From: a virus
DNA length: 64,000 bases
Direction: 5' to 3' (one strand)
IMG/VR virus record: IMGVR_UViG_3300027809_000002
Shown: piece after piece, positions 8,657 through 14,669 of the stretch
How the letters are laid out: every line of letters starts with the position of its first letter
Position numbering within the stretch: position 1 is the stretch's first letter
Notes under the pieces: model-generated
What the model was told of the DNA's origin: nothing
What the model saw: the letters and a program-made list of their open reading frames with translations, nothing else
The model's database searches: none
Made by a program: the position numbers and the translations under genes

Positions 8657-9238
8657 ATGACTAAATCAAAAATTAAATATGGCGATTGGGAAAATGATGA
8701 TCTGTTACTTGCTGAAACGGTTTTACGGTATGTTAGGAATGGGGATGTTATAAATGATGCGTGTAAGGAAGTTGAGGAAAAATTAAATTACACAAGAACG
8801 TTCACAACGTTAAAACATAGATGGTTCACTGTATTGAAACAACAGTATGAACACGCGTTTAACTTAGCTCTTAAAGAAGGTAAAAAGAAAAAGAAAAAAA
8901 GATATAGACAATCTCAAAATCCAAATCCTGATGAAATAGGGATCAATGATGTATTAAAGGTTGTTAAAGCATACAGTGAAAAGGTAAGTAGAGAAGACGA
9001 AGACAGAAAACGTAACGAAGAACTTAAAAAAGAGAATCAGGCCATAAAGAATAAATTAAATAAAATCAATGAAGAGTTAGAAGTTATTTCGGATTTACTT
9101 CAACATGAAAAAGCTAAAAATAATGATTTAATTAAAACGATACAAACTTTAAAGTCCATAGGATTTAATTTAGATACAGATTCAGGGAAGAGATATAAAG
9201 TAGATAAACAAGGGGTTGTAGAAGTACCTGCTCGTTAA
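8657..9238 (+). CDS. RsfA-family (Myb/SANT-like) transcriptional regulator with a coiled-coil tail
   Basis: WENDDLLLAETVLRYVRNG...RT...HRW...LKQQY closely follows the B. subtilis RsfA signature as I remember it. Confidence 0.65.
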   Translation: MTKSKIKYGDWENDDLLLAETVLRYVRNGDVINDACKEVEEKLNYTRTFTTLKHRWFTVLKQQYEHAFNLALKEGKKKKKKRYRQSQNPNPDEIGINDVLKVVKAYSEKVSREDEDRKRNEELKKENQAIKNKLNKINEELEVISDLLQHEKAKNNDLIKTIQTLKSIGFNLDTDSGKRYKVDKQGVVEVPAR

Positions 9239-9257
9239 GAGTTGGGTACTTTTTTTA
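9223..9257 (+). terminator. intrinsic terminator
   Basis: Stem AGTACC/GGTACT followed by a T7 run. Confidence 0.65.
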
Positions 9258-9269
9258 TACATAATTATT

Positions 9270-9299
9270 TTGACTTTTTAGTGAATAAAATGGTATATT
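9270..9299 (+). promoter_or_regulatory. sigma-A-like promoter (extended -10)
   Basis: TTGACT, 18 nt spacer, TGgTATATT. Confidence 0.6.
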
Positions 9300-9332
9300 T
9301 TACACAAGAACTTACGTTTGGAGGATGAAGAA

Positions 9333-9509
9333 ATGTTTCTATTTTGGTTATTTATTTATTTATTGATTGGGGTTATTGTTGCCTTTAAAACTCAAGTTTA
9401 TTCTAAAGTATCATTCGTTTTACTTACGATATTATGGTTGCCAATGTTTATTGTTGGACTAGCTATTATTGCGCTAATGATTTACGAAGAAAGAAAGGGG
9501 CGTATGTAA
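9333..9509 (+). CDS. small two-TM membrane protein
   Basis: GGAGGA RBS 7 nt upstream. Paralogue of the next gene. Confidence 0.5.
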   Translation: MFLFWLFIYLLIGVIVAFKTQVYSKVSFVLLTILWLPMFIVGLAIIALMIYEERKGRM

Positions 9510-9706
9510 TGTTAGCTGCTGTTTTATTTTACTTATTAATAGGATTGCTTGCTTCTATAGAAATAGGTTTCGATAATTGGTTAGGTTATATATTATTCGC
9601 TTTATTATGGTGTCCACTTATGATTTTAGGATTGTTCGCATTAGGTATGGAAGCTTATGAAGATTTTAAATATAAAAGAAAAGGTGATAAAAATGAAAAA
9701 AGTTAA
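9509..9706 (+). CDS. small two-TM membrane protein (paralogue)
   Basis: TAATG coupling to the upstream gene. Shares YLLIG...LLW.P(M/L).I(V/L)GL with it. Confidence 0.5.
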   Translation: MLAAVLFYLLIGLLASIEIGFDNWLGYILFALLWCPLMILGLFALGMEAYEDFKYKRKGDKNEKS

Positions 9707-9953
9707 ATTGCAGCGTGAAGAAAAATTTAAAGCAAGTCTTCGTTCGTGGGGAGATTTCGACAACAGACCTATGATCCGTGACCGTGAACATGTGCTGGAA
9801 GATGAACGCGATTATATGATGAAAGCTGAACGTATCAGAAAAGAAAAAGAACGAATTGCAAAAGTTACAGGTGACGATCCAAAAAACATCCATTTACACG
9901 ATAATTGGGGTAATTCTGAGGTATATGATTTCGCGAACCGCCCTCTCCAATAG
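9693..9953 (+). CDS. hypothetical basic protein
   Basis: AAAGGTGA RBS. Confidence 0.45.
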   Translation: MKKVKLQREEKFKASLRSWGDFDNRPMIRDREHVLEDERDYMMKAERIRKEKERIAKVTGDDPKNIHLHDNWGNSEVYDFANRPLQ

Positions 9954-10062
9954 GACAGTCAGAAGTTAAAGTTAATAATTTGTCGAAAAGTATTTTCAAG
10001 CGATAAAGCCTATTCTATTGGGAAGGGATAGCATTTGGAAATAATTACATGAGTCAAAAAGC

Positions 10063-10092
10063 TTGACAAGCATAAAGTATGCCGTATATAAT
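10063..10092 (+). promoter_or_regulatory. consensus sigma-A promoter
   Basis: TTGACA, 18 nt spacer, TATAAT. Confidence 0.7.
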
Positions 10093-10184
10093 TTAATTAT
10101 AGACTACACGAGTTAAGTTATAGTTTAAAGTTAATATATAATTTGTATTTATTTTAACTCTTATTAAATATTGGAGGTTATAAT

Positions 10185-10451
10185 ATGATTATAGAAATTG
10201 ATAAAAATAATATTTACCCTGCCGCTGAAGAGGTACAAAAGAATCTTCTCAAGAAAGCAATAATTAAAAGGACTGTACCTGAGTGGGGAGGAACTACAAA
10301 GCAAGTTTCTGAAGAAGCTAGGCCTTTGCATTTTAAATATAAAAGTGGAACTGAACTTAGTGGACAACCAGTGTTACAAGTTGTTGTTTTAGGAGTTACA
10401 GCAAGAGAATTTGATTTTAAAGATTTAGATTCATTTGAATTCCAAAGCTAA
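10185..10451 (+). CDS. hypothetical protein
   Basis: TGGAGGT RBS. Confidence 0.5.
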   Translation: MIIEIDKNNIYPAAEEVQKNLLKKAIIKRTVPEWGGTTKQVSEEARPLHFKYKSGTELSGQPVLQVVVLGVTAREFDFKDLDSFEFQS

Positions 10452-10473
10452 ACTATAACTTTAGCAAATGTTG

Positions 10474-10502
10474 TTGACAAGTTAATTAATAACTGTTAAG
10501 AT
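10474..10502 (+). promoter_or_regulatory. sigma-A-like promoter of the tRNA/ncRNA unit
   Basis: TTGACA at 10474-10479, 17 nt spacer, TGtTAAGAT with the -10 at 10497-10502. Confidence 0.6.
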
Positions 10503-10568
10503 TAACTTATAAACGTTACACATACGTTTCGCCATATGTTTTCTCTCTTTCATATCTTGGATCAGATT

Positions 10569-10602
10569 TTCTGTACTAGTTACGCGTAAGGCTGGTACAG
10601 AA
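10569..10602 (+). ncRNA. leader hairpin / near-palindrome upstream of tRNA-Asp
   Basis: 11-bp stem TTCTGTACTAG/CTGGTACAGAA. The loop contains the palindrome TTACGCGTAA. Confidence 0.6.
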
Positions 10603-10606
10603 TCAT

Positions 10607-10677
10607 GGGGAATTAGTTTAGTGGTAAAATACACGGCTGTCTACCGTGAGTCAGGGGTTCAACTCCCCTATTCCTCG
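10607..10677 (+). tRNA. tRNA-Asp (anticodon GTC), no encoded CCA
   Basis: Hand-folded cloverleaf: acceptor GGGGAAT/ATTCCTC, D stem GTTT/AAAT, anticodon stem CACGG/CCGTG, loop CTGTCTA, T arm AGGGG-TTCAACT-CCCCT. Position 37 is a pyrimidine, which is unusual. Confidence 0.8.
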
Positions 10678-10687
10678 TTTATAACAT

Positions 10688-10761
10688 GGCGTTTGTAGCA
10701 TTGTTGGGAATGCAACCTAAGAGTCCCTTAGGTAGAAGGTGTTCGACTCACCCTTACGTCA
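10688..10761 (+). ncRNA. aberrant tRNA-like element / possible tRNA pseudogene (74 nt)
   Basis: T arm (A)GGTG-TTCGACT-CACC(C). Acceptor has 5 of 7 pairs. D loop contains GG. The anticodon arm is either a 7-bp stem ACCTAAG/CTTAGGT with a 5-nt loop, or a 5-bp stem with loop GAGTCCC (GTC present, but A at 33 and C at 37). Confidence 0.5.
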
Positions 10762-11309
10762 CCGAAACTATAAAACTTTAGTCATGTTGAAGTGGTTTAG
10801 GCGAAACCCTAAACAAAGCATATCCGTCCTACTGCGATATAAAAAGAAGGCTAACATGATGTCGTGACTGGTTCGGCGACATTAAAAGATAAACGACAGA
10901 CAGACTTCCTGTATGCGATCTCCATGTTCAAAGGATCGAACATACGAAAACTTTACATCAACTACAGTGAATGAGGTTTGGACATGGTTTCAATCACTGG
11001 TTGATTCAACGGTTAAAGTTAAAGGTTAAAGAACCGTGTGACCCTAGTATAAATGGTATATTAAAATGCGAACGCTGTTTATACGTTAAAACTTTCTACA
11101 ACGTTAGTCGCATACGGTATGTAGAAGTCGCATTAAGTTGAAAGGTTATGAGTGCGACAAAACAAATTAAAAGAACCATCCCTACACAAGATAAGTTCTT
11201 TTATTGGGACGTAAGCGCCCGTTAAACTTAGGAACATATGAGTCCTGAAAAAAAGAAACGCGTATAAAATTCTCGTTTGTTTTCGTTGAGCCGCTTAATC
11301 GCGGCAATA

Positions 11310-11432
11310 TGGGTTGTAGTTTAAGAAGGAAAAACATTATAAATGCGTTTGAGACGATGAAGCATACTAGTCAAAGCGAAAAGTCGTTGATGCGTTTATA
11401 AAAAAGTTAGGTTCGACCCCTGACCAACCCAC
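11310..11432 (+). ncRNA. 123-nt tRNA-like RNA with a long hairpin in place of the anticodon arm
   Basis: Acceptor TGGGTTG/CAACCCA. D arm GTTT-AAGAAGGA-AAAC. T arm (G)TTAGG-TTCGACC-CCTGA(C). Between them, a 13-bp stem TTATAAATGCGTT/GATGCGTTTATAA, a 6-bp stem, and a terminal loop of about 24 nt. Confidence 0.5.
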
Positions 11433-11437
11433 CGCAT

Positions 11438-11503
11438 GCAGGATTATGGTATTGCAGTTACTTCAGCTGAAACTGTAAGGTGGTTCGACTCCACTATCCT
11501 GCT
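11438..11503 (+). ncRNA. 66-nt tRNA-like element lacking a D arm
   Basis: Perfect acceptor GCAGGAT/ATCCTGC. T arm GGTGG-TTCGACT-CCACT. Only 10 nt where the D arm should be. Anticodon-like arm GTTAC-TTCAGCT-GAAAC (CAG, one A-A mismatch), which includes the palindrome TCAGCTGA. Confidence 0.5.
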
Positions 11504-11602
11504 ACTATCATGGTGTGAAAACACCTCCTACCCCCTTAGGAATATAGGTTAATTTGTTTTTCATAGTTATAAATTTTCCTTTCTAGTTGTTTATCAAAGA
11601 AG

Positions 11603-11632
11603 GCATCGGCTTAATCGCTGGTGCTTTTTTTG
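11603..11632 (+). terminator. intrinsic terminator ending the ncRNA unit
   Basis: Stem GCATCGGC/GCTGGTGC, loop TTAATC, then a T7 run. Confidence 0.75.
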
Positions 11633-11675
11633 TTGTAAAATTTGGTATTAATGGTTTCCGAAAGGATGTGATCGA

Positions 11676-12089
11676 ATGGCTGAAGTTACAAATAAAATTA
11701 AAACAAATTTAGAAAAGTCTCCAAATGGACAGGAATTGTTAGTTGTAGAAGATGTTAATGGCGTTAAAGCCGTACCGATGGTATTAGTTACTATTGATGA
11801 AAACGGAAAGTATTCTTACGCTGGATCATTAGGTGGAGGTGGTGGCTTAACAGCTGAACAAGTTAATCAAATGTTAGCTGGATATTCTAAAACTGACCAT
11901 AACCACGATTCCGTTTATGCTAAAACATCAACTTTAAGTAATTACGCTACAACAACTCAATTAAACACGAAATTAACTGCAAACAAAATGACTAGCATTC
12001 CTAATAGTGCTGCTACTGATGTAGCTGGTGTTGTTGCCGATTTAAACAAATTATTAGCTGGTTTAAAAGCTGCTGGAATCATGTCGTAA
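11676..12089 (+). CDS. putative virion fibre/decoration-like protein (137 aa)
   Basis: AAAGGATGTGA RBS. G5 linker, then a TDHNHD..Y motif and a C-terminal ADLNKLLAGLKAAGIM helix of the kind seen at fibre or head-fibre ends. A monocistronic unit flanked by two terminators. Confidence 0.35.
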   Translation: MAEVTNKIKTNLEKSPNGQELLVVEDVNGVKAVPMVLVTIDENGKYSYAGSLGGGGGLTAEQVNQMLAGYSKTDHNHDSVYAKTSTLSNYATTTQLNTKLTANKMTSIPNSAATDVAGVVADLNKLLAGLKAAGIMS

Positions 12090-12093
12090 AAGG

Positions 12094-12117
12094 GATCGCT
12101 TCGGCGGTCTTTTTTTA
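12094..12117 (+). terminator. intrinsic terminator
   Basis: Stem GATCGC/GCGGTC, TTCG loop, T7 run. Confidence 0.8.
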
Positions 12118-12130
12118 TTTTCTTATTCAA

Positions 12131-12150
12131 GTAATATTGGTTTATAGAAA
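12131..12150 (+). promoter_or_regulatory. conserved 20-mer GTAATATTGGTTTATAGAAA (candidate late promoter)
   Basis: Near-identical copy GTAATACTGTTTTATAGAAA at 14733-14752. Related GTATTAATGTTTTAGAA at 33484-33500. Each lies just upstream of an RBS. Confidence 0.5.
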
Positions 12151-12169
12151 AGTAAGGATGGTGAATAAA

Positions 12170-13033
12170 ATGTCTGAAGTAAAACAGTATTTAACTAAAG
12201 ATGGTCATGTATTCGAAAGTTTAGTTGAGTTAGGTGGAGCTAATCCGAAAGAATATGATTTAAAGTTATTGCAAGCTGCTGAAGCAAGGGTTATTAAAGG
12301 TACTAACAAAACTCTTCGTACAGCTTTAAATAGTTTAGCTGGCTTCAAAAATATGAAGAACGATGGAGTTAAAGTTAAGGAAGTTAAAGATGCTGAATTC
12401 GATGAATACGGATTAAGTGACTCCTTCTATACAGAACAACAAATGGGTACAATTCGTAGAGCTATTGACCGTTACCATGAAGGTTATGATATAGCGACAC
12501 CTTTCCAAGAAAACGGCGTAATACAGCTTGCTAAGTACGAATTAATGATGAACGAACTTGGAGCTAAAATAGCCCAACATCCAACTAAAGATGATATAGC
12601 AAGTTTGAAAATGATTCAGGATTTACATGCAAAACTAAACAACGATATGAAGTTTACAACAAGACAATCTGTTGGTGACGCTAATTCTGAAGATATGTTT
12701 ACAAATGCTGTAGTTGAATATGAGAAGCGATTTAAGGAAGAATACTTTGCATTTGAGCATATTGAAGACCGCGATGCTATGCAAGATATTCTAATTAAGT
12801 TTGCGGATCGTGTAGTTGATTTTATGAAAGAATCTCCTACTTATTATCATTTCAAAAAGAAAATGTCTGATGAATTAGATTTAAAACCAAAAGATTTAGA
12901 TTTAATTGGCCGCTTTACTATTGAAGAATTTTACGACTTCCTTCAAATAAATGCTGACAGAAAGATGATTCAAGAAAAGAATGATTTAACGTTTGATGAT
13001 AGCTTTAAAGATAGAGGTGAGGACAATGAGTAA
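12170..13033 (+). CDS. putative terminase small subunit
   Basis: Assigned by position only, immediately upstream of and overlapping the large terminase. AAGGATGGTG RBS. Confidence 0.35.
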   Translation: MSEVKQYLTKDGHVFESLVELGGANPKEYDLKLLQAAEARVIKGTNKTLRTALNSLAGFKNMKNDGVKVKEVKDAEFDEYGLSDSFYTEQQMGTIRRAIDRYHEGYDIATPFQENGVIQLAKYELMMNELGAKIAQHPTKDDIASLKMIQDLHAKLNNDMKFTTRQSVGDANSEDMFTNAVVEYEKRFKEEYFAFEHIEDRDAMQDILIKFADRVVDFMKESPTYYHFKKKMSDELDLKPKDLDLIGRFTIEEFYDFLQINADRKMIQEKNDLTFDDSFKDRGEDNE

Positions 13034-14669
13034 AGAAGAAGAAATCGGAACTAAACCTATAGGTGGTATTAGTCCGGTGAATAAAAACAGGCGACAATTT
13101 ATTCGTGAAGTACGTCAAGGTGTAAGACGTTCTCAAGTTGACCTTATCGACTTCATTCATTATTACCGTTCACATCCTGTAGAAGCTTGTTACGATATAT
13201 TAGGTATTTCACTTATGCCTTATCAGAAGGAACTATTAAAGAATTCTTGGTGCAAACCGTTCCCTCTTTGGTGTATGAGTCGTGGATCAGGTAAATCTTA
13301 TCTTGCTGCTATTGATATGGCCTTGAACGCTTTATTATTCCCTAATATGCGTATTGGCATTATCGCTCCTTCTTATCGTCAGTCTAAGTTCTTATTCCTG
13401 AAGTTTAAAGAAGAAGTATACAACAAATCGAAACTGCTACGAAAATTTGTTTCCGGTAATTTAAAAGAAGGTAATGAAGAGTGTAAATGTCAATTTTTAA
13501 ATGGTTCATTCATACAGGCGTTACCGCTTGGTGATGGTTCTACGATCCGCGGTCAGCGTTACAATAATATTTACGTGGATGAATATGCTGCTATCGATGA
13601 ACAAATTGTACGACTAGTTGTAGAGCCGATGTTAACCGTTAAACGTGCGTTCGATCCTAACAATCCTGAAAGTTCAGAAGGAAACCGTATCGTTATCTTC
13701 TCTTCTGCATACTACACTTGGAATCATTTCTACGCTGCAACTCAAAGATACTTGAGCCGTGTTAAAGCTGGAAATCCTGATTATTATGTAGCTATTGTTG
13801 ATTATCGTATGCCTTTAAAATATGGATTATACGATGAAAAAGCAATTCAGAAAGCGAAACGAGATAATACAGAAGGTGACTTTATGATGGAGTACGGATC
13901 AGTTTTCCAAAGTGAAAGCGCTGGTTCTTGGATTCCTACAATGTTATTTGACAGACGTATTCGTTGGGCTGAAGAATTAGAACCAAGATTAATGGGAGAA
14001 AAACATAAATCATACGGTTTATATTGTGACTTCTCTATCTCACAAAAAGACTTTGCTGATAATACTACATTCTTGGTTTGTGAACTTGATCCGCTTGGAT
14101 TTAACAAACCTGTAATGATGCGCGCCCAAAAAGGTATGACATTAGAAGAAATACATGCACAAATGCGTAAGTATGACCGTGACTTTAACCTTGACCATAT
14201 TTGGATGGATGGTGAGAAATTAGGATTAGCATTAAAAGGTTACTTGGAAAAATCTTATGATGACCCTGATTCTAAACAAGAACAATTACCGCTGCTTGAT
14301 ATGGAAGGAAATAATCCTGATGTATACGGTAAGAAGATTGTAAAATACTTCAAACATAATCAGGAGAACAACCATAACATGGGACTTGCTGCTAAACGTA
14401 TGATTGAACAAAAACGTATTTATATGCCTGTATTGCAAGATCGTCACGAAGAACCGGATATCGAATTAGCATTCCTTGAGTTAATCGCAATGAAAAAAGA
14501 GATTACGCAAATCAAAGCTGTACCAAGTGGAATGTATTATAAATTCGAACAGGAGAAAAAGTCAGGACTTAAACGTGACCGCTGGACGGTATTCGCTTAT
14601 AGCTGTATGGCATTGGAGCAAAGATTGAATGGAGAAGAGGAAGATGATTTCATTTTCGCGGTTGTATAA
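13026..14669 (+). CDS. terminase large subunit
   Basis: Walker A-like SRGSGKS, Walker B IYVDE, appropriate size, and synteny with the portal gene. Confidence 0.85.
   Translation: MSKEEEIGTKPIGGISPVNKNRRQFIREVRQGVRRSQVDLIDFIHYYRSHPVEACYDILGISLMPYQKELLKNSWCKPFPLWCMSRGSGKSYLAAIDMALNALLFPNMRIGIIAPSYRQSKFLFLKFKEEVYNKSKLLRKFVSGNLKEGNEECKCQFLNGSFIQALPLGDGSTIRGQRYNNIYVDEYAAIDEQIVRLVVEPMLTVKRAFDPNNPESSEGNRIVIFSSAYYTWNHFYAATQRYLSRVKAGNPDYYVAIVDYRMPLKYGLYDEKAIQKAKRDNTEGDFMMEYGSVFQSESAGSWIPTMLFDRRIRWAEELEPRLMGEKHKSYGLYCDFSISQKDFADNTTFLVCELDPLGFNKPVMMRAQKGMTLEEIHAQMRKYDRDFNLDHIWMDGEKLGLALKGYLEKSYDDPDSKQEQLPLLDMEGNNPDVYGKKIVKYFKHNQENNHNMGLAAKRMIEQKRIYMPVLQDRHEEPDIELAFLELIAMKKEITQIKAVPSGMYYKFEQEKKSGLKRDRWTVFAYSCMALEQRLNGEEEDDFIFAVV

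Follow-up and report, generated by a model that had tools for sequence, protein, structure and literature searches.

A tRNA-like RNA element with a variable hairpin in place of the anticodon arm in Bacillus phages of the Sejongvirinae

The element at positions 11310-11432 of the window (the whole 64,000-nucleotide stretch of DNA analysed here, from a Bacillus cereus-group siphophage of the Sejongvirinae) has the acceptor stem, D arm and T arm of a tRNA and, where the anticodon arm belongs, a two-step hairpin of 65 nt. On balance we favour, with some reserve, the reading that it is a non-decoding RNA gene derived from a tRNA, lying in a noncoding operon of the Sejongvirinae, in which the handle for tRNA maturation has been kept and the site of the anticodon arm serves as a slot for variable hairpins. 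The preliminary description, which did not recognise this class of RNA, was too strong in that respect, as related Bacillus phages have in the same slot a small tRNA-derived family, of which this element is the most derived member.

The element sits in a noncoding operon of about 1.1 kb made up of tRNAs, tRNA-like elements and structured RNA, and the flanking genes and RNA modules are all on the + strand. The features surrounding the element are as follows.

10474..10502, + strand: sigma-A-type promoter-like site, TTGACA, 17 nt, TAAGAT, with TG before the -10 (consensus scan, 10/12 matches)
10606..10678, + strand: tRNA-Asp (GTC), the first operon module (ARAGORN; 63.1 bits on the Rfam tRNA model)
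11290..11305, + strand: leader hairpin GCCGC-TTAATC-GCGGC, 4 nt upstream of the element
11438..11505, + strand: TLE4, a tRNA-like neighbour 4 nt downstream (21.9 bits on the tRNA-Sec model; strict scan)
11603..11631, + strand: terminator-like hairpin GCATCGG-CTTAATCG-CTGGTGC followed by T7 (read from the sequence)

The promoter-like site, whose position upstream of the tRNA/TLE array is kept in relatives, presumably marks the start of the operon; the terminator-like hairpin, which is kept in all relatives and was not called by a simple terminator scan, presumably marks its end. The tRNA-Asp precedes the element by 630 nt on the same strand of this operon. The leader hairpin shows compensatory variants (GCCGC/GCGGC in the window, GCCGGC/GCTGGC in Bak10, GCCAAC/GTTGGC in UViG36783 and pW4) and is expanded in Ga0209463 and L077. 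TLE4 has an acceptor stem and a T arm, lacks a D stem and carries a variable middle hairpin; its L058/L005 variant reaches 30.2 bits with the tRNA model. Both the 4-nt spacing between the element and this next module and the ACC tail of the element are typical of tRNA clusters.

The predicted fold (RNAfold) of the + strand of 11310-11432 comprises an acceptor stem, a D arm, a T arm and the long hairpin, with a minimum free energy of -33.2 kcal/mol (z -4.61) that is reached by 0/200 dinucleotide shuffles. The reverse strand gives -18.8 kcal/mol (z -0.36), which is no better than its shuffles because five G-U pairs become C-A mismatches; the structure is therefore strand-specific and dependent on G-U pairs. 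The parts of the element are these.

11310-11316, + strand: acceptor stem, 5' strand TGGGTTG (sequence and fold; 2/7 pairs with double-sided changes in eight homologues)
11319-11335, + strand: D arm GTTT / AAGAAGGAA / AAAC (stem strands 11319-22 and 11332-35; from the fold)
11337..11401, + strand: lineage-specific hairpin in the anticodon-arm slot (13-bp stem, 3-nt bulge, 6-bp stem, 24-nt loop; from the fold)
11337-49 and 11389-401, + strand: lower stem of that hairpin, TTATAAATGCGTT / GATGCGTTTATAA, 13 bp with 3 G-U pairs
11350-52, + strand: UGA bulge (from the fold)
11353-58 and 11383-88, + strand: upper stem GACGAT / GTCGTT, 6 bp with 2 G-U pairs
11359-82, + strand: hairpin loop of 24 nt (from the fold)
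11406-11424, + strand: T arm (G)TTAGG / TTCGACC / CCTGA(C) (stem 11407-11/11419-23; sequence and fold)
11425-11431, + strand: acceptor stem, 3' strand CAACCCA, 7 Watson-Crick pairs with 11310-11316
11431-11433, + strand: encoded ACC tail, A11431 C11432 C11433 (read from the sequence)

Sequence and RNAfold thus reproduce the acceptor stem, D and T arms, 13-bp stem with its three G-U pairs, 6-bp stem and 24-nt loop of the preliminary description. Two of its measurements need correction: the hairpin proper, given as 80 nt, is 65 nt long (11337-11401) and the whole stretch from D arm to T arm is 70 nt, and the D loop AAGAAGGAA, given as 8 nt, has nine nucleotides, GG among them. The segment GGTTCGACCCC at 11410-11420 fits the T-arm motif GGTTCRANYCC. 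Where the acceptor and T stems meet, the element can be drawn in two ways. Seven Watson-Crick acceptor pairs may be interrupted by an extra C at 11424, standing between the T stem and the 3' acceptor strand and either unpaired or paired with G11406 to extend the T stem to 6 bp. Alternatively, the standard tRNA register (G1 = 11311, U-1 = 11310, A73 = 11431) gives a 6-bp acceptor stem stacked on a 6-bp T stem and followed by the ACC tail, at the price of a U7-C66 mismatch and with a U-1:A73 pair.

A strict scan of the whole window for an acceptor stem plus T arm returned three matches only, all on the + strand and within 900 nt, namely the tRNA-Asp, the element and its 3' neighbour; the chance level in shuffles is about 0.5 matches per 64 kb. 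ARAGORN called no tRNA and no tmRNA at 11310-11432, and the Rfam tRNA model (RF00005) did not match the element at its gathering score or at E <= 10. Set against a canonical tRNA, the element shares the acceptor stem, the D arm with GG, the UUCGANY T loop (consensus UUCRANY) and the ACC(A) tail; the D and T arms covary in homologues. It differs in its irregular acceptor/T junction and above all in lacking a 5-bp anticodon stem with a 7-nt loop (U33, anticodon, purine 37), the slot being filled by the 13 + 6 bp hairpin with its 24-nt loop. The 3' half formed by T arm and acceptor has no match in any Bacillus genome in a collection of 185,579 species representatives, and was therefore not copied from a host tRNA; its sole match among these genomes is an ordinary Verrucomicrobia tRNA-Lys. 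Searching with the most tRNA-like homologue by blastn retrieved phage tRNAs of various kinds (Tyr, Lys, Asn), matched in their T-arm/acceptor halves only.

Of the checks suggested in the preliminary description, Rfam yielded no match, while the collection of homologues was productive: the same slot is filled by eight distinct sequences (Bak10, BSG01, Basilisk, UViG36783, Ga0209463, L073, L075, L077) that have the acceptor, D and T arms in common and whose scaffold covaries. Their orthology follows from synteny together with 80-90% identity of the flanking scaffold halves. In the scaffold alignment 98.3% of cells are paired and 6/16 pairs change on both sides, statistics that lean toward structure since the alignment was built by hand from eight related sequences only. 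None of 500 shuffles reached the observed covariation score, and slid controls were 25-56% paired. Double-sided changes in the D arm convert U-A to C-G at one pair and U-A to G-C at another, and two further pairs of the T stem change on both sides. ACC, followed by G, T or A, is present in every homologue of the slot and also follows TLE1, type B and TLE5; the T-loop consensus is retained in every member. As judged from these sequence comparisons, the scaffold is clearly under structural selection.

The anticodon slot behaves quite differently. It holds six unrelated hairpins with no shared sequence, having loops of 3, 4, 5, 6, 7 or 24 nt and stems of 4-19 bp. A 7-nt loop occurs in one of the six types and is irregular, and most of the hairpins other than that of the window are tiny, with 5-bp stems and 4- or 5-nt loops. 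The long hairpin is thus one occupant among six and not a conserved feature by which the class could be defined. Bak10 and L073 carry one hairpin type in unchanged form, and Basilisk and UViG36783 another, on T stems that differ. Some relatives lack the module and have a different mini tRNA-like element there instead.

Such variability could also arise by decay. The element would then be a tRNA pseudogene whose anticodon arm was destroyed differently in each lineage, the long hairpin being neutral and persisting between useful RNAs. We regard this as rather unlikely, although several observations point that way. Scores on RF00005 form a series across homologues, from 52.3 bits (Ga0209463) through 25.1 bits (UViG36783) to no match; the single 7-nt loop is irregular; the long hairpin is unique to the phage of the window, and 8-nt direct repeats flank its apical part, which is a signature of insertion; and the module is replaced altogether in some relatives. 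Neutral decay would not, however, produce the double-sided changes that keep the acceptor, D and T stems paired, nor does it sit well with an ACC tail and T-loop consensus in every member, with five G-U pairs that keep the hairpin intact on the RNA strand only, or with two hairpin types that stay the same on diverged T stems.

The 65-nt hairpin folds on its own with -18.5 kcal/mol (z -3.2) and, because of its five G-U pairs, forms on the + strand only. It was found only in the phage of the window, every copy in four datasets being 100% identical. Divergent copies were found neither by distant-mode blastn against 50,697 phage records, nor by exact-pattern scans of viral contigs, nor by family-pattern scans of viral, metagenome and genome collections; on contigs reached through two downstream proteins, the relatives carry other hairpins. 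A blastn-short search with 11336-11405 against the rest of the window and the fetched loci for a source of the insert gave chance matches of 10-13 nt. Three features within the hairpin bear on its origin and possible use.

11343..11350, + strand: 8-nt direct repeat ATGCGTTT, copy 1 (read from the sequence)
11390..11397, + strand: 8-nt direct repeat ATGCGTTT, copy 2 (read from the sequence)
11348..11352, + strand: candidate k-turn core, UUU bulge 11348-50 and G11351, A11352 facing G11389, A11390 (sequence match)

Deleting one ATGCGTTT copy and the 39 nt between the two leaves TTATAAA-TGCG-TTTATAA, a 7-bp stem with a tetraloop, which resembles the hairpin of the Ga0209463 homologue (CTATA-GACG-TATAG). 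The flanking repeats suggest that the long hairpin is probably the product of an insertion or duplication of 47 nt within a short hairpin with a tetraloop.

The hairpin might instead be the functional part of the RNA, acting as a protein binder (for example of the L7Ae-family proteins YbxF/YlxQ), a decoy or a guide, with the tRNA body as a scaffold for expression and stability and the hairpins of relatives as alternative cargoes. The standard k-turn consists of a 3-nt bulge followed by tandem G-A/A-G pairs between a canonical and a non-canonical helix (PMC5061560), and the window's hairpin agrees with this definition at every defining position: the pairs would be G11351-A11390 and A11352-G11389, with a C helix of 11 bp and an NC helix of 6 bp. 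Bacillus has k-turn-binding proteins of this kind, bacterial homologues of L7Ae (PMC5061560, PMC9723947). The architecture is moreover that of the engineered tRNA scaffold of Ponchon and Dardel, in which the anticodon stem-loop is swapped for a hairpin insert while the acceptor, T and D arms are kept, and whose products are processed, protected from nucleases and stable in bacteria (PMC3753655); that design is man-made. A clean hairpin is present in the slot in every case, and two of the cargo types have been conserved while their scaffolds diverged. Against this, although the candidate is the strongest k-turn match in the window, its closing pair is G-U, weaker matches turn up in shuffles about nine times per 64 kb, and the modules of relatives do not repeat the motif; the candidate k-turn at 11348-11352 should be read as a lead only. 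Most of the other cargoes are tiny hairpins that make improbable specific ligands. No antisense target stands out either: in an RNA duplex scan that covered 176 translation-start regions in the window, the apex of the hairpin, its loop and the hairpin of TLE4 did no better than shuffles, 80% of shuffled loops scoring equally well. Overall we consider it doubtful that the hairpin is the main functional part. The TLE4 loop is complementary to the start of the downstream ORF at 10/11 positions, which, given the result with shuffled queries, is not significant.

A bolder version would have the Sejongvirinae use the natural tRNA scaffold as a display chassis. Its conserved acceptor/D/T body, matured and protected by the tRNA enzymes of the host, would carry exchangeable hairpins that evolve fast, in the phage of the window the 65-nt k-turn-like one, with proteins or RNAs of host or phage as binding partners in takeover or in counter-defence. 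That there are six unrelated types would then be a result of cassette exchange or diversifying selection and not of decay. We offer this as speculation and give it a small chance of being correct.

It is very improbable that the element is a working tRNA gene with an intron in its anticodon arm, from which splicing restores a decoder. The insert is at the usual place of tRNA introns and deletion between the ATGCGTTT repeats does restore a short hairpin, but that hairpin has a 4-nt loop and not a 7-nt anticodon loop, and most homologues that lack the insert also lack a decoding loop. As the preliminary description had concluded, a group I intron does not fit: neither group I nor group II models of Rfam match even at E <= 10, and 65 nt is far under group I size (P3-P9 core of at least about 200 nt). 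Bulge-helix-bulge splicing is not known to occur in bacteria.

The tRNA-like domain of tmRNA and the Y-RNA-like YrlA RNAs share with the element tRNA mimicry without an anticodon, and a 14-codon ORF (11357-11401) lies inside the hairpin. A ribonucleoprotein RNA of either kind is nonetheless hardly tenable, in agreement with the preliminary description. ARAGORN found no tmRNA, and the tmRNA and Y-RNA families of Rfam are unmatched at E <= 10. Pseudoknots are absent and so is the G3-U70 pair, position 3:70 being G-C; the ORF lies in base-paired sequence, lacks the context of a resume codon and has LMRL, not a degradation tag, at its end. YrlA has the opposite topology: there the tRNA-like module is internal and the long, Ro-binding stem is built from the ends of the RNA, whereas in the element the ends pair as the acceptor stem and the long stem lies inside.

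The 3' halves of tRNA genes are often overlapped by the attachment sites of phages, relatives encode an XerD-like recombinase, and on the - strand the hairpin is followed by TGTTTTTCC; yet it is scarcely credible that the element is a terminator of - strand transcription or an attP core taken from a tRNA gene of the host, given the lack of any Bacillus match to the T-arm/acceptor half among the 185,579 species representatives, the shuffle-like - strand fold with its C-A mismatches and the + strand orientation of all flanking genes and RNA modules.

We propose, on the reading of the element as a non-decoding tRNA-derived RNA gene, that the part kept is what the tRNA-maturation enzymes of the host would read, namely a 12-bp coaxial acceptor/T-arm helix (6 + 6) with its T loop, the elbow-forming D arm and the ACC tail encoded in the gene. 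Since these enzymes do not read the anticodon arm, its site would be a free slot. RNase P would cut at 11310/11311, the 3' end would be trimmed to ...ACC and completed by the CCA-adding enzyme, and a stable RNA of about 122-125 nt would be released, simultaneously defining the ends of the neighbouring RNAs. The irregular acceptor/T junction, with either the extra C11424 or the U7-C66 mismatch and U-1:A73 pair, makes the RNase P site uncertain. An encoded CC after the discriminator may inhibit RNase Z, to judge by the B. subtilis enzyme, in which case 3' maturation would have to be exonucleolytic. The hairpin, for its part, could bind a protein, for example through the k-turn-like bulge. No tRNA-metabolism enzymes are annotated in phage Basilisk.

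A comparable processing logic, which we extend to the element by analogy, is known from the t-elements of plant mitochondria. These are non-canonical cloverleaves with a GGTTCRANYCC T arm and an acceptor-like helix that are cut by RNase P and RNase Z and receive non-templated C/A additions, whereby the ends of neighbouring RNAs are defined (PMC1920247). They differ in being organellar, in flanking mRNAs and in having no common ancestry with the element, and no variable cargo hairpin has been described for them. A role as a pure processing signal leaves unexplained why a well-paired hairpin is present in the slot in every case, and likewise why the phage of the window keeps one of 65 nt.

By analogy of architecture, the nearest known counterpart of the element is species 1 RNA of phage T4 (rnaC), which together with species 2 RNA (rnaD) is likewise encoded in a phage tRNA cluster beside real tRNAs. 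Species 1 RNA is 137 nt long and has a canonical T arm (CCGGG-UUCGAAU-CCCGG) adjoining its paired termini, a 10-bp stem with a 6-nt loop at the place of the anticodon arm, and an extra hairpin of about 60 nt. Both RNAs combine a tRNA-like T arm and terminal helix with long non-tRNA hairpins; the T4 RNA does not decode and still has no known function (PMC9697503). The resemblance is one of kind and not of family, as blastn-short between the element and rnaC/rnaD gave 7-9-nt matches only and nothing beyond the T loop. The large hairpin of the T4 RNA is in the position of the D arm, whereas that of the window's element is in the anticodon position, and T4 belongs to an unrelated phage family with a Gram-negative host. 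T4 rnaC is also highly conserved in T-even phages (708 records, mostly >= 95% identity), in contrast to the hypervariable slot of the Bacillus phages.

Today phage tRNA genes are discussed chiefly as a codon supply and as an escape from anticodon nucleases. Non-decoding tRNA-like RNAs have been known in phage tRNA clusters since species 1 and 2 of T4, still without a function, and the Bacillus phage locus would be a second, independent example, in phages of Gram-positive bacteria. With the scaffold conserved and the anticodon arm replaced wholesale between phages, comparison separates the needed handle, on which RNase P, trimming of the 3' end and CCA addition would act, from the free part or cargo. 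Should the RNA be processed and stable, the engineered tRNA scaffold would have a natural counterpart in it, and an experimental route would open to the old question of what these phage RNAs do. We found no paper on tRNA-like RNAs in the Sejongvirinae or on such an architecture in phages. The RNA family and the surrounding operon of about 1.1 kb are absent from Rfam, and GenBank records mis-annotate them as short protein-coding genes.

TLE3, the tRNA-like element at 11310-11432 (+ strand) of this siphophage of the Bacillus cereus group (subfamily Sejongvirinae), is a real feature. The acceptor stem, D arm, two-step hairpin and T arm of the preliminary description are all present and are reproduced by RNAfold, with the D loop corrected from 8 nt to 9 nt.

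Parts of TLE3, + strand
Within 11310-11432, acceptor stem: TGGGTTG/CAACCCA (read from the sequence)
Within 11310-11432, D arm: GTTT-AAGAAGGAA-AAAC, 9-nt loop (read from the sequence)
11337-11401, long hairpin in place of the anticodon arm: 13 bp (three G-U), UGA bulge, 6 bp (two G-U), 24-nt loop
Within 11310-11432, T arm: TTAGG-TTCGACC-CCTGA (read from the sequence)

The minimum free energy and centroid folds are this same structure (-33.2 kcal/mol, z -4.61), equalled by none of 200 dinucleotide shuffles. The - strand (-18.8 kcal/mol, z -0.36) folds no better than its own shuffles, so it is the + strand RNA that carries the signal, which depends in part on G-U pairs. When the 64 kb is scanned strictly for a T arm adjoining a 7-bp terminal helix, three matches emerge, tRNA-Asp, TLE3 and its 3' neighbour, all on the + strand in a span of 900 nt, against about 0.5 in shuffled windows. 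Also present, and new relative to the preliminary description, are an additional base, C11424, that separates the T stem from the 3' acceptor strand, and an encoded ACC directly 3' of the element. In the standard tRNA register (G1 = 11311, A73 = 11431) TLE3 has a 6-bp acceptor and a 6-bp T stem, the sixth T-stem pair being G11406-C11424, which keeps the usual 12-bp stack; an extra U-1:A73 pair is possible. A 14-codon ORF inside the long hairpin (MKHTSQSEKSLMRL*, 11357-11401) is probably a chance ORF, because most of it is base-paired and a Shine-Dalgarno sequence is lacking.

The sole call by ARAGORN and by Rfam at gathering thresholds is tRNA-Asp (10606-10678). With Rfam run permissively (E <= 10) over 10000-12000, TLE3 matches no tRNA, tmRNA, Y RNA or intron family, which bears out the earlier exclusion of group I introns, tmRNA and Y RNA. 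TLE3 departs from tRNAs in its anticodon loop and its detector scores. It is a new, extreme variant of the non-decoding tRNA-like RNAs, a kind known from phage tRNA clusters. The nearest known example is T4 species 1 RNA (rnaC), which is encoded within the T4 tRNA cluster. Its termini pair, its T arm is canonical, the anticodon position is taken by a 10-bp stem with a 6-nt loop, and there is an extra hairpin of ~60 nt; it shares no sequence homology with TLE3. T4 species 1 RNA still has no assigned function (PMC9697503).

Homologues lie 3' of a conserved leader hairpin (11290-11305 in the window) and 5' of TLE4, the next tRNA-like element, or of the terminal region. They are carried by Bak10, BSG01, Basilisk, two IMG/VR contigs and several metagenome/Logan contigs, and share the acceptor stem, D arm, T arm and ACC tail; between TLE3 and UViG36783 the scaffold halves show about 80-90% identity. 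The Rfam tRNA model scores the homologues of Ga0209463 and UViG36783 at 52.3 and 25.1 bits, so the family is, on this evidence, tRNA-derived. It is small, previously undescribed and absent from Rfam. In a hand-built, stems-only alignment of eight distinct but related members, fitted to the structure, standard pairs fill 98.3% of cells, and 6 of 16 scaffold pairs show double-sided changes, two each in the acceptor, D and T stems. The covariation score of this alignment was reached by 0 of 500 column shuffles, and slid partners pair in only 25-56%.

The anticodon slot, between D arm and T arm, holds six mutually unrelated hairpin types.

Hairpins in the anticodon slot
Ga0209463: CTATA-GACG-TATAG
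Bak10 and relative L073: CATTG-GCGCA-CAATG
Basilisk, UViG36783 and relative L075: ATTC-TCTCAGT-GAAT
BSG01: 10-bp stem, loop CGAACA
Relative L077: 3 + 6-bp stem, loop GTT
Window: the 65-nt long hairpin

This hypervariable slot within a covarying scaffold is the notable point of the family. Between Bak10 and L073, and between Basilisk and UViG36783, the slot hairpin is unchanged despite T stems that have diverged by compensatory changes. A 7-nt loop is confined to the Basilisk type, and there with C33, so the family as a whole does not look decoder-like. In that type (L060:1416-1493, L009:5091-5164, L075:2292-2366) the loop is UCUCAGU, with UCA (opal/Sec-type) in the anticodon position; most members of the lineage have a potential 13-bp acceptor/T stack, which recalls tRNA-Sec geometry. 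ARAGORN labels the Ga0209463 homologue (L057:2644-2715) 'tRNA-Tyr(ata)' with an anticodon at position 29; the actual loop is 4 nt and the label an artefact.

The family conserves the 12-bp acceptor/T stack, the T loop, an elbow-forming D arm and the ACC tail, the features read by RNase P, by the enzymes of 3'-end trimming and by the CCA-adding enzyme; it varies in the arm that tRNA-maturation enzymes ignore. We propose that a polycistronic transcript would release TLE3 as a stable non-decoding RNA of tRNA shape, and that its excision would also fix the ends of neighbouring RNAs. This role in processing, or as a scaffold, is the best-supported reading, and we lean towards it. Each part of it has a precedent: plant mitochondrial t-elements (PMC1920247), and engineered tRNA scaffolds whose anticodon stem-loop is swapped for a hairpin insert and which are processed and stable in bacteria (PMC3753655).

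That TLE3 is a functionless pseudogene seems unlikely. It is more doubtful still that the long hairpin is functional cargo. No relative of this hairpin was found in any phage, viral, metagenome or genome collection searched, and no antisense target stands out within the window. The sequence itself is real, since the same phage was recovered from four independent datasets (ENA ERZ27241727, JGI 3300030497, JGI 3300003850, SRA SRR4141180), always at 100% identity over 4-5.4 kb (9176-14589). An 8-nt direct repeat, ATGCGTTT, at 11343-50 and 11390-97 brackets the apical 39 nt. If one copy is deleted together with the stretch between the two, what is left is TTATAAA-TGCG-TTTATAA, a short hairpin with a tetraloop, as in Ga0209463; a 47-nt insertion or duplication is therefore the probable origin of the long hairpin. 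Read in an alternative register, its internal loop fits the standard k-turn definition, in which G-A and A-G pairs come after a 3-nt bulge (PMC5061560).

Candidate k-turn in the long hairpin, + strand
11337-47/11391-401: C helix
11348-50: bulge, UUU
G11351-A11390 and A11352-G11389: G-A/A-G pairs
11353-58/11383-88: NC helix

This is the strongest k-turn match in the window; it is a lead only, because shuffled sequences often contain weaker matches and the motif is not seen again in the relatives' modules. An intron, or a tmRNA or YrlA RNA, is in each case very improbable, TLE3 having failed the membership tests for all three, and a DNA-level or - strand feature is equally hard to credit given the strand asymmetry of the fold and a search that found no Bacillus tRNA with the T-arm/acceptor half of TLE3.

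TLE3 sits in a ~1.1-kb stretch without credible genes, flanked by early genes and by head-fibre-like and terminase genes. Relatives (BCPST, PBC4, pW4, BSG01, Basilisk, Bak10) are about 81-87% identical in the TLE3 region.

Other features of the stretch
10474-10502: sigma-A-like promoter, at its start
10687-10763: TLE1, tRNA-like, missed by ARAGORN and Rfam
10765-10860: ~95-nt element just 3' of TLE1, closing stem TCATGTT/AACATGA, inner hairpin GTTTAGG-CGAAA-CCCTAAAC
10906-11260: noncoding block, conserved in all Sejongvirinae relatives
11438-11505: TLE4, 4 nt downstream of TLE3, acceptor stem and T arm without D stem, middle hairpin varying between relatives
11603-11631: conserved terminator-like hairpin and T run, at its end

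Ten such operons, aligned, form a mosaic of modules that are present, absent or swapped between phages, with joints at (C)ATGG motifs. (C)ATGG or ATATGG precedes every tRNA or tRNA-like module (window 10600-11515; relatives' loci L001-L004, L009, L057-L060, L071-L077), and together with the mosaic this points to recombination, or to an exchange of cassettes, where modules meet. The modules include real tRNAs (Asp, Trp, Asn) and at least five tRNA-like kinds uncalled by ARAGORN: TLE1, TLE3, TLE4, a 61-nt 'type B' and a ~90-nt 'TLE5'. Two short CDSs over tRNA-like elements in BCPST (L001, BCPST 70819-71083), BCPST_088 'capsid protein' and BCPST_089 'hypothetical protein', are annotation artefacts.

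TLE1 combines a 5-bp D stem and a T arm with a 6-7-bp 'anticodon' stem capped by a conserved 5-nt loop (NNUCC), and it carries an ACC tail. Relatives show covariation in that anticodon-like stem (CCTAAG/CTTAGG vs CCG(T)GAG/CTCCGG). The ~95-nt element, without an Rfam match, is 90-93% identical to copies in the unrelated Herelleviridae phages W.Ph. and Crookii, in W.Ph. behind a tRNA cluster (Asn, Glu, Asp) and upstream of the portal gene; from sequence, it has the appearance of a small RNA shared horizontally. The conserved block (~280-380 nt across operons) is predicted by RNAalifold to fold into several hairpins, with 6 pairs kept through double-sided changes, and is unmatched in Rfam at E <= 10. 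GenBank records place short hypothetical CDSs over it, such as Basilisk gp29 on the opposite strand.

The TLE4 loop in the window (GTTACTTCAGC, 11457-67) could pair at 10 of its 11 positions with codons 2-5 of the ORF that follows (11679-89); its duplex energy against all start regions is no better than chance. In other relatives the TLE3 slot is filled by type B, a mini tRNA-like element of 61-63 nt (L001:2278-2338, BCPST; L003:1087-1149, BSG01; L058:2440-2501) of the form TGGAGTG … GTGGG-ATCGAAA-CCCAC-A-CACTCCA-CC. The L058 acceptor is one bp shorter through matched two-strand deletions (TGGAGTG/CACTCCA to TGGGTG/CACCCA).

Just before the terminator, a GNRA-capped minihelix, GGTGT-GAAA-ACACC, runs into CACCTCCT (11522-29; together 11512-11529), and TTCCTTTCTAG follows at 11576-11586. 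The 3' end of Bacillus 16S rRNA is …CACCUCCUUUCUA, which the two segments together resemble, as anti-Shine-Dalgarno mimics. An RsaE/RoxS model matches weakly at 11548-11630 (20.8 bits, E 1.7). A 3'-terminal sRNA able to sequester ribosome-binding sites may lie here.
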